Part shown: positions 34,331 to 35,678 of the stretch, piece after piece
How the letters are laid out: each line of letters begins with the position of its first letter
Position numbering within the stretch: the stretch's first letter is position 1
Source of the DNA: Escherichia phage ECO104 4-5-2
DNA: 43,051 nt
Sequence record: OR844702
Strand: one strand, 5' to 3'
Program-made: the position numbers and the translations under genes
The notes under the pieces: model-generated
What the model was told of the DNA's origin: nothing
The model's input: only the letters and a program-made list of their open reading frames with translations
Database searches by the model: none

Positions 34331-34513
34331 ATGGCTATCGCTAAAGCTACGCAAGCACAGCAGTACGAACTCCTGCGCCAACTGAATATCCTCGCTAAGG
34401 ATACTTACGCTGCCCTGACCGAGTTCAAAGCAATCGACCAGACTGGCCCGGCTATCGACGCTAAGATTCCGGCTCTGGAAGCGGCTATCACTGCCGTTAA
34501 AGCAGCAGCCTAA
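34331..34513 (+). CDS. Hypothetical protein (60 aa)
   Basis: Small Ala-rich helical ORF; no motif. Confidence 0.4.
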   Translation: MAIAKATQAQQYELLRQLNILAKDTYAALTEFKAIDQTGPAIDAKIPALEAAITAVKAAA

Positions 34514-34926
34514 TGAGAGTACTGGTCGCTGGGTTAATCCTCGCTACGGCTCTTACAGGCTGCTCAGCGACCTCTGCATTGACAGGTCTCATTGGCTCTA
34601 AGCCGGACCTGTCTGTGCAAGCTGGCGCAGAGAACACTAAGCAAACTGTAGGCCTTAACGGCAAGTCCGACTCCAGCACGGACAATGAAACAACTATTAA
34701 AGATTCTAACGTAGGCACACTGGATACTTCAACTAAGAAACAGTCCAGTTCAGTTACTACTGGAACCATTAACACGGAGCGGGTACAGGTCGTAAACAAT
34801 GACGGTACTAGCATAATTCTGGCAGGACTGGCAGGTGCAGCGGTTCCAATCGCAATCCTCATCATCGTCCTGTTATTCCGCAAGCTCGGAAGAACTAAGG
34901 ATGAGAGCGATGAGTCTACCAATTAA
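34513..34926 (+). CDS. Unimolecular-spanin-like lipoprotein (N-terminal lipobox plus C-terminal transmembrane helix)
   Basis: Signal sequence with lipobox LTGC (MRVLVAGLILATALTGC), a Ser/Thr-rich periplasmic region, and a C-terminal TM segment (IILAGLAGAAVPIAILIIVLLF) with a charged tail. Sits directly upstream of the holin and endolysin. Confidence 0.5.
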   Translation: MRVLVAGLILATALTGCSATSALTGLIGSKPDLSVQAGAENTKQTVGLNGKSDSSTDNETTIKDSNVGTLDTSTKKQSSSVTTGTINTERVQVVNNDGTSIILAGLAGAAVPIAILIIVLLFRKLGRTKDESDESTN

Positions 34927-35158
34927 CGGGGAAACTATCACCCGTGTAGGAACGAATGTGTCTGTCGCTACTATGGGTGGCGGTTGGATGGCAGACGTAA
35001 TGTCGTGGCAGTGGGGTACTATCTCCTTCATTGTTGGTACAGTAATGGCTGTACTGACCTTTGCATGGAACGCGTACTACAAACACAAAGAGTATAAGCT
35101 CAAGGAGAAGGCACTGGAGAAGGGGCTGGAATACTATGAGCATAAGCAACAAGGTTAA
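34910..35158 (+). CDS. Holin (putative pinholin)
   Basis: ~82 aa from ATG 34910 (SD aagga), two hydrophobic segments and a Lys/Glu-rich C-terminus; overlaps the endolysin start. Confidence 0.5.
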   Translation: MSLPINGETITRVGTNVSVATMGGGWMADVMSWQWGTISFIVGTVMAVLTFAWNAYYKHKEYKLKEKALEKGLEYYEHKQQG

Positions 35159-35678
35159 GGCTGCGCTGGCAGGGGCAACCCTGCTGGGTGGCAGTATCAC
35201 CGCAGTGATTCAGCATAATGAAGGGCTGTCCCTGACAGCCTACAAAGATTCAGCCGGTGTACCGACTATCTGCTACGGTGAGACTAAAGGCGTACAGATG
35301 GGCCAGAAACGCACTCTGACGCAATGTCAGGAGCAGCTGATACAATCAGCTGGGGAACACGCTAAGGCCCTTGACGGACTTCCTATGACGCTTACGGACG
35401 TACAGCTTCTCGGTGCCCTAGACCTGACCTATAACATAGGAGTATCAGGCTTCAAGAATAGTACTGTGAAACGTAAGCTAATGCAAGGCGATACTAAAGG
35501 TGCTGCTCAGGCCGTCCTGGCGTGGCGCTACATCACTGTTAAGGGTAAGAAGTACGATTGCAGCCTGGAAGGGAATAAGGTCTGCTACGGCCTCTGGAAG
35601 CGCCGTGTTTGGGAATCTAAAGCTATAGGGAACGAATTCAAATCAATGCAGGCAGCAGTAGCTGCTATGCCCAAGTAA
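35136..35678 (+). CDS. Endolysin, GH24-type lysozyme with N-terminal SAR-like segment
   Basis: Start ATG 35136. Gly/Ala-rich weakly hydrophobic N-terminus (AALAGATLLGGSITAVI) followed by the lysozyme signature EGLSLTAYKDSAGVPTICYGETKG. Confidence 0.75.
   Translation: MSISNKVKAALAGATLLGGSITAVIQHNEGLSLTAYKDSAGVPTICYGETKGVQMGQKRTLTQCQEQLIQSAGEHAKALDGLPMTLTDVQLLGALDLTYNIGVSGFKNSTVKRKLMQGDTKGAAQAVLAWRYITVKGKKYDCSLEGNKVCYGLWKRRVWESKAIGNEFKSMQAAVAAMPK

Follow-up and report, generated by a model that had tools for sequence, protein, structure and literature searches.

The 43,051-nucleotide (nt) sequence record OR844702 of Escherichia phage ECO104 4-5-2, whose full length we refer to as the window, carries three overlapping genes arranged head to tail on the + strand at 34513..35678. 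These genes very probably constitute the host-lysis module of a KP34-like (Slopekvirinae) podophage, acting through a pinholin, a signal-anchor-release (SAR) endolysin and a unimolecular spanin (u-spanin). The open reading frame (ORF) list and direct reading of the sequence place them as follows.

34513..34926, + strand: predicted spanin gene, 137 amino acids; evidence from the ORF, phrog_1804, homology to T1 gp11 and a family alignment.
34910..35158, + strand: predicted holin gene of the phage 21 S (class II, pinholin) family, 82 amino acids; evidence from PF04971, phrog_20 and BLASTP with S21-68.
35136..35678, + strand: predicted GH24, T4-lysozyme-like endolysin gene of SAR type, 180 amino acids; evidence from PF00959, phrog_7 and PDB matches.

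A first-pass annotation made from the sequence alone had placed three mutually overlapping genes at these positions, and that layout is borne out. The spanin and holin genes overlap by 17 nt (34910..34926) and the holin and endolysin genes by 23 nt (35136..35158); the endolysin, for which the first-pass annotation gave no start, begins at the ATG at 35136. Upstream, the sequence TAATG at 34511..34515 joins the spanin ATG to the stop codon of a 60-amino-acid gene, the two having one base in common. All three proteins match lysis families in Pfam and PHROGs with strong E-values, and the spanin has 1201 database homologues, many of them named spanin or U-spanin. Given these homologues and the lysis-family matches, the three ORFs are not chance occurrences. 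Two minus-strand ORFs overlie the cassette (34497..34922, 141 amino acids; 34916..35200, 94 amino acids), and since every gene in the window that is backed by homology or by a relative's annotation sits on the + strand, we dismiss them as mechanical shadows of the + strand genes. The analysis thus establishes gene structure, sequence motifs and family homology. A scan of 33000..38000 for sigma-70 promoters and terminators gave counts close to the shuffled expectation and nothing convincing within the cassette, which fits transcription of the cassette within the phage late operon.

This lysis system is already known for KP34-like phages, and its arrangement here is ordinary. Phages of this group (Kp34likevirus or Drulisvirus, Slopekvirinae) have these three genes, likewise ordered, downstream of their terminase genes, and u-spanin, holin and SAR endolysin in this order have been described as a defining trait of ‘Kp34likevirus’ that sets it apart from phiKMV (Eriksson et al., 2015, PMC4411677). 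The Drulisvirus KpV71 has the same layout, with an annotated spanin, holin and endolysin that are 67%, 51-53% and 66% identical to the window proteins, respectively. The closest annotated relative over the cassette, at 85% DNA identity, is the E. coli phage vB_EcoP_P64441 (Autographivirales, Slopekvirinae; hereafter P64441). Its gene order is the same, and the proteins annotated as putative spanin, holin and endolysin are 96%, 95% and 81% identical to those of the window. Within the subfamily the ECO104 4-5-2 lineage differs from KP34, its nearest phages being the E. coli phages P64441 and PAS7. Two local variations occur among these relatives: the P64441 spanin (P64441 4044..4469) has a four-residue insertion that duplicates the lipobox (LTGCLVGC), and in PAS7 (1869..4254) holin and endolysin are separated by two genes, one hypothetical and one for a tail fibre.

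Homology to all three window proteins is also detectable in the lysis cassette of phage T1, a siphovirus of the Drexlerviridae that encodes gp13 (holin), gp12 (endolysin) and gp11 (u-spanin). BLASTP aligns the window spanin with T1 gp11, taken as the T1 protein at the gp11 position and the last gene of the T1 cassette, at 37% identity over 125 amino acids (E 3e-24). The T1 endolysin is 30% identical to that of the window (E 4e-16), and the T1 holin aligns with the window holin at E 2e-5 over the second transmembrane domain (TMD2) and the tail. In a separate alignment, a 13-residue stretch of the window holin (GGGWMADVMSWQW) faces a gap in the T1 holin. The order of the genes differs, being holin, endolysin, spanin in T1 and spanin, holin, endolysin in the window.

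The holin is the member of the cassette whose class calls for the most weighing. It matches PF04971 (Bacteriophage P21 holin S) with 33.2 bits, where the gathering score is 26, falls just under the cut-off of the related class II family PF16080, and belongs to phrog_20 ‘holin’ (5e-20). PF04971 is likewise present in each of 11 database homologues of the protein. The phage 21 holin S21-68, in a sequence that is 100% identical to the phage 21 GenBank record, aligns with the window holin over nearly the whole length (BLASTP, E 9e-7, 25% identity). The best start for the gene is 34910, and the following features belong to it.

34897..34901, + strand: Shine-Dalgarno sequence AAGGA, conserved in P64441 and lying 8 nt ahead of the holin start codon at 34910.
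34946..35008, + strand: N-terminal segment of the holin, residues 13-33, weakly hydrophobic and rich in Gly, Ala, Ser and Thr; candidate SAR-like first transmembrane domain (TMD1).
35012..35077, + strand: holin residues 35-56, predicted as a strong transmembrane helix; the C-terminal tail behind it is rich in Lys.

These matches support a phage 21 S-type, pinholin-like holin, and the phage 21 protein resembles the window holin both in Pfam family and in hydropathy profile. Pinholins make holes of about 2 nm, which suffice to depolarise a membrane and are too small for endolysin. Residues 35-56 align with TMD2 of S21-68 (BLASTP) and have a Kyte-Doolittle (KD) mean of 1.27, compared with 1.5 for that domain, with 11-residue windows reaching 2.38; the tail behind them holds seven Lys or Arg residues. 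Residues 13-33 fall within the stretch aligned to the N-terminal, TMD1-bearing part of S21-68, and the motif GGW.A(D/E).M.W.WGTISF is conserved. The TMD1-loop region is seven residues shorter than in S21-68. The first-pass annotation had called this protein a small two-transmembrane, pinholin-like holin. The pinholin-like part stands, and two transmembrane helices are plausible by homology, only the second being strongly hydrophobic.

Several observations weigh against that second part, and could be explained if the protein were a single-transmembrane (class III-like) or large-hole holin having merely a common ancestry with the S21 family. Only residues 35-56 rise above the standard hydropathy threshold for a transmembrane helix. 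The first segment is weakly hydrophobic (KD 0.6) and contains a conserved acidic residue, Asp or Glu, and the alignment with the T1 holin is confined to TMD2 and the tail. An AlphaFold model of the holin, with a mean predicted local distance difference test (pLDDT) score of 60, has helices at residues 7-22 and 25-81 and no confident hairpin, its best-scored residues being 41-50 (pLDDT 81) and 51-60 (72). In addition, the signal and transmembrane calls made throughout this analysis come from KD windows, motif rules and homology rather than from SignalP, LipoP or TMHMM, and a TMHMM-type analysis of the KP34 orthologues reported a single transmembrane domain, of the class III holin kind (Eriksson et al., 2015, PMC4411677). 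The same authors nonetheless called those orthologues pinholins owing to the SAR endolysin (PMC4411677). We consider a single-helix or large-hole holin unlikely, for three reasons. TMD1 of S21-68, experimentally a transmembrane and SAR domain, has a still lower hydrophobicity (KD 0.28) and one charged residue of its own. The PF04971 match spans residues 14-66 of the 82-amino-acid holin (17-69 of an 85-amino-acid translation) and so covers both segments. Finally, the partner endolysin appears to be of SAR type, which requires membrane depolarisation only.

The S21-type, pinholin-like assignment raises the further question of a dual start. The window differs from the KP34-like cassette in having an extra, non-conserved in-frame ATG ahead of the holin start; it lies at 34901, 9 nt upstream, and adds Met-Arg-Ala (MRAM...). 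Since MRAM fits the M-K-x-M pattern of S21, the longer product, richer by one positive charge, could be an antiholin and the product of ATG 34910 the holin, as with S71 and S68 of phage 21. This is a doubtful proposition. P64441 has ACG as the codon at this place, and in PAS7 the holin start is immediately preceded by a stop codon, which rules out a dual-start antiholin as a conserved feature, in contrast to phage 21. Moreover, AAGGA overlaps the ATG at 34901 and leaves it without spacing, and T and C at this site encode the same residue in the overlapping spanin frame, which makes the ATG look incidental. The dual start is a trait of S21 itself and not a requirement for pinholins generally.

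A composite of these alternatives seems no less doubtful: the holin could be a single-transmembrane member of the S21 family in which GGW.A(D/E).M.W.W serves as a non-membrane regulatory element, with the MRAM start giving an S21-71-like antiholin in this lineage alone, and the spanin linker could also be disordered and not beta-structured. If true, an intrinsically disordered linker would matter for the mechanism of membrane fusion by unimolecular spanins.

The third protein of the cassette matches PF00959 (Phage_lysozyme, GH24) at 1e-25 and belongs to phrog_7 ‘endolysin’ (5e-42); a match to the NCBIfam BgtA endolysin model is sub-threshold (56.6 bits, cut-off 315). Among proteins of known structure, its sequence matches 7M5I (7e-17), 3HDE (7e-15) and 3HDF (3.5e-14), the latter two being the full-length and the active form of phage 21 lysozyme. 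The endolysin begins with MSISNKVKAALAGATLLGGSITAVI, and its alignment with 3HDE starts at residue 6, so the match takes in the N-terminal anchor.

35154..35210, + strand: predicted SAR domain, endolysin residues 7-25 (VKAALAGATLLGGSITAVI), with basic residues K6 and K8; aligns with the SAR segment of 3HDE.
35220..35267, + strand: catalytic motif E29-(8 aa)-D38-(5 aa)-T44, by direct reading.

We find support here for the SAR-type GH24 lysozyme with a weakly hydrophobic, Gly/Ala-rich N-terminus that the first-pass annotation had proposed, and more specifically for an R21-like one. Residues 7-25 have a KD mean of 1.61 and consist of Gly, Ala, Ser or Thr at 58% of positions. Residues E29, D38 and T44 are invariant in an alignment with the endolysins of P64441, KpV71 and T1. 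The alignment with phage 21 R21 takes in the catalytic domain as well as the SAR anchor, and the window protein has the shorter linker from the SAR helix to the catalytic Glu. Direct reading finds no cysteine in residues 1-25, and the anchor of R21 lacks one as well. A cysteine-less SAR domain marks R21-type refolding, as opposed to the disulfide caging of the P1 Lyz type.

It is very unlikely that this protein is instead a free periplasmic enzyme exported by a cleavable signal peptide and devoid of a SAR domain. Its basic n-region and hydrophobic core are those of any Sec signal, and A-G-A at residues 11-13 could in principle be an AxA cleavage site. However, A-G-A sits in the middle of the hydrophobic core and not beyond it, the segment with its Gly/Ala/Ser/Thr-rich composition aligns with the uncleaved SAR domain of 3HDE, the catalytic Glu29 follows the anchor by only four residues, and the N-terminus is kept in the P64441, KpV71 and T1 orthologues.

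The first gene of the cassette encodes a protein with the N-terminus MRVLVAGLILATALTGC, a lipoprotein signal composed of Met-Arg, a hydrophobic core (KD 2.24) and the lipobox LTGC (L14-T15-G16-C17).

34513..34563, + strand: lipoprotein signal sequence, by direct reading, ending in the lipobox LTGC (34552..34563), with the Cys17 codon at 34561..34563.
34810..34878, + strand: spanin residues 100-122, a predicted C-terminal transmembrane helix, KD mean 2.74, followed by a basic and then an acidic cytoplasmic tail.

Residues 100-122 form the only strongly hydrophobic stretch beyond the signal, with a maximum of 2.81 for the 19-residue KD window at residues 101-119. Both the LTGC lipobox and the C-terminal helix had been noted in the first pass, and each is upheld by direct reading, by hydropathy and by an alignment of 10 family members drawn from Slopekvirinae, Waewaevirus (LIMEzero) and Drexlerviridae (T1, DTL and a KP36-like Klebsiella phage), a sample that spans Autographivirales and Drexlerviridae. 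Gly16-Cys17, the motif P-x4-Q-x-GAEN-x-K and Gly47 are invariant in this alignment, and a hydrophobic stretch occupies the transmembrane position in all 10 sequences. The residue after Cys17 (the +2 position) is Ser or Ala in 10 of the 10 and Ser in the window protein, where the motif rule thus finds no inner-membrane retention residue (Asp). Cys17 is the sole cysteine of the protein, so that none is periplasmic. The u-spanins as a class likewise have no periplasmic cysteine (PMC6139136).

Together with the T1 gp11 homology, these features support a u-spanin of the T1 gp11 family rather than an Rz/Rz1 pair, as had been suggested. T1 gp11 has the same topology of lipobox plus C-terminal transmembrane helix and no periplasmic cysteine, and it complemented a lambda Rz/Rz1 defect (PMC6139136). 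The window protein falls in phrog_1804 ‘Rz-like spanin’ (3.4e-43). A tblastn search of a phage collection with it returned 1094 records, many annotated as U-spanin or putative spanin and phage T1 among them, and the homologue in phage DTL is 46% identical. Kongari et al. (2018, PMC6139136) defined families by 40% identity over 40% of the length to a member, placed KP34, F19, NTUH-K2044-K1-1 and phiKDA1 in the T1 gp11 family, and found nearly all members of that family within pinholin-SAR cassettes. The NCBIfam spanin2 family gives a sub-threshold score (22.6 bits, cut-off 80).

The structural model is less informative about this assignment. The periplasmic domain of the T1 gp11 family is described as a short helix followed by at least four beta strands. 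An AlphaFold model of the window spanin, built from a shallow alignment and with a pLDDT of 50, contains the signal helix, a short helix at residues 19-27 and a C-terminal helix at 97-132, the last being its best-scored part with a peak of 85 at residues 111-120. Residues 28-96 of this protein, whose composition is rich in Thr, Ser, Val and Asn, are modelled as coil with pLDDT below 50, which neither confirms nor rejects the beta-rich pattern. That the protein is an outer-membrane lipoprotein with a non-lysis role, such as superinfection exclusion or a SlyB-like function, is extremely improbable: several homologues carry the JGI name ‘outer membrane lipoprotein SlyB’, but there is no SlyB-type domain match in Pfam, the homology to the complementing T1 gp11 is direct, the conserved C-terminal transmembrane helix would be needless in an ordinary outer-membrane lipoprotein, the gene overlaps the holin gene within a lysis cassette, and the genome contains no other spanin candidate.

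The last point comes from a scan of every possible ORF on both strands of the window. The only strong lipobox match was 34513..34926, with no Rz1-like lipoprotein elsewhere, and no free-standing Rz-like ORF with an N-terminal transmembrane helix was found; the Rz/Rz1 pair that would have spoken against a u-spanin is therefore absent from the scan. Two weaker candidates were rejected. The first, an embedded 40-amino-acid ORF at 8702..8824 with a GTG start and an LVAC lipobox, was considered as an Rz1; it sits in a DNA-metabolism region, within a host ORF (8518..8904) that encodes a soluble acidic protein without a transmembrane helix. The second is an early-region small protein with no Rz-like or membrane-protein gene beside it.

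39404..39643, + strand: small ORF, 79 amino acids; signal-like N-terminus plus an MLSC motif that resembles a lipobox without being canonical (MTTFKIWFFGALAGTVLMLSCKDAQ); phrog_19819, function unknown.

Its product may be an early lipoprotein, for example one for superinfection exclusion. With its KP34-type module the genome needs no Rz/Rz1 pair.

From the experimentally studied prototypes T1 gp11, S21-68 and R21 we infer the functional steps by which the cassette would act. On late expression, translation of the three genes would probably be coupled, since they overlap. The endolysin would be exported by Sec and held, inactive, on the inner membrane by its weakly hydrophobic N-terminal anchor; disulfide caging is not expected, because the anchor lacks cysteine. 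The S21-type holin would build up in the inner membrane, then trigger and depolarise it, whereupon the anchor would leave the bilayer and the lysozyme, refolding like the phage 21 enzyme, would degrade the peptidoglycan. The spanin, meanwhile, would be anchored in the outer membrane by lipid on Cys17 and in the inner membrane by its C-terminal helix, Ser at +2 indicating that it carries no inner-membrane retention signal. Between these anchors lies a Thr/Ser-rich periplasmic linker of 82 residues, about 27 nm if fully extended. Once the peptidoglycan mesh was gone, the spanin would be freed to act on the outer membrane, which it would disrupt, most probably through fusion with the inner membrane.

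Two of the closest known systems share parts of this pathway and differ in the spanin. Phage 21 has a two-component, embedded Rz/Rz1 spanin, unlike the u-spanin of the window. PhiKMV, a related Autographivirales podophage, likewise has a pinholin and a SAR endolysin (PMC4411677), but its genes run holin, endolysin, Rz/Rz1 and its spanin is two-component. The similarity between the phiKMV and KP34 cassettes has been put at about 30% over 22% coverage (PMC4411677).

The window as a whole is a complete, circularly assembled KP34-like (Slopekvirinae) phage genome. Its ends carry an exact repeat of 77 nt (1..77 and 42975..43051), most likely the overlap of a circular assembly, which would make the genome 42,974 bp and the window circularly permuted. 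Downstream of the cassette, the gene at 35688..37046 has a weak tail-spike match, and relatives have an annotated tail fibre gene at this place. The late genes finish near 37046, and small + strand ORFs, apparently early genes, start near 37600. Unannotated GenBank records including OR850875, OR846963, OR849139 and OR844896 are 99.8-100% identical over the stretches compared and bear Salmonella, Listeria and E. coli phage names. These host labels look unreliable, because a KP34-like phage whose lysis genes are of Gram-negative type (spanin, lipobox) cannot infect Listeria.

Upstream, the window differs from the KP34-like arrangement in having two extra ORFs between terminase and cassette. That at 33282..33938 encodes a 218-amino-acid protein rich in Thr, Ser, Val and Gly (phrog_9732) and that at 33948..34319 a 123-amino-acid protein (phrog_7128), both of unknown function. 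P64441 and PAS7 lack both and have only the 60-amino-acid gene between the terminase large subunit (TerL) and spanin genes; in KpV71, a gene of 124 amino acids, similar in size to the 123-amino-acid ORF, directly follows the terminase.

The most noteworthy sight in the window lies outside the lysis finding: two probable group I introns interrupt the genes for terminase and DNA polymerase. The TerL gene occupies two ORFs (31046..31618 and 31900..33123), both of which match TerL families and which are divided by a 251-nt insertion (31616..31866) absent from the TerL gene of P64441. An Rfam group I intron match (RF00028, 31551..31804, 65.4 bits, gathering score 50) overlaps the insertion, which is probably a self-splicing group I intron without an ORF. 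The DNA polymerase is likewise in two ORFs (1681..2955 and 4097..5026), and a second RF00028 match (3356..4042, 51 bits) lies between the halves. Inside this second match, the ORF at 3468..4010 is an HNH homing endonuclease (phrog_7545, 9e-47), and a further HNH endonuclease ORF is found at 5013..5489.

The value of the lysis finding is the correct annotation, in an unannotated genome, of a standard KP34-type lysis module. Its endolysin and spanin could serve enzybiotic or lysis engineering, though they are not new kinds of protein. For the family, ECO104 4-5-2 is one more podophage with the complete T1-type set of lysis genes (holin, SAR endolysin and u-spanin) in a permuted order, in line with published work in which spanins of the gp11 family accompany pinholin-SAR systems.

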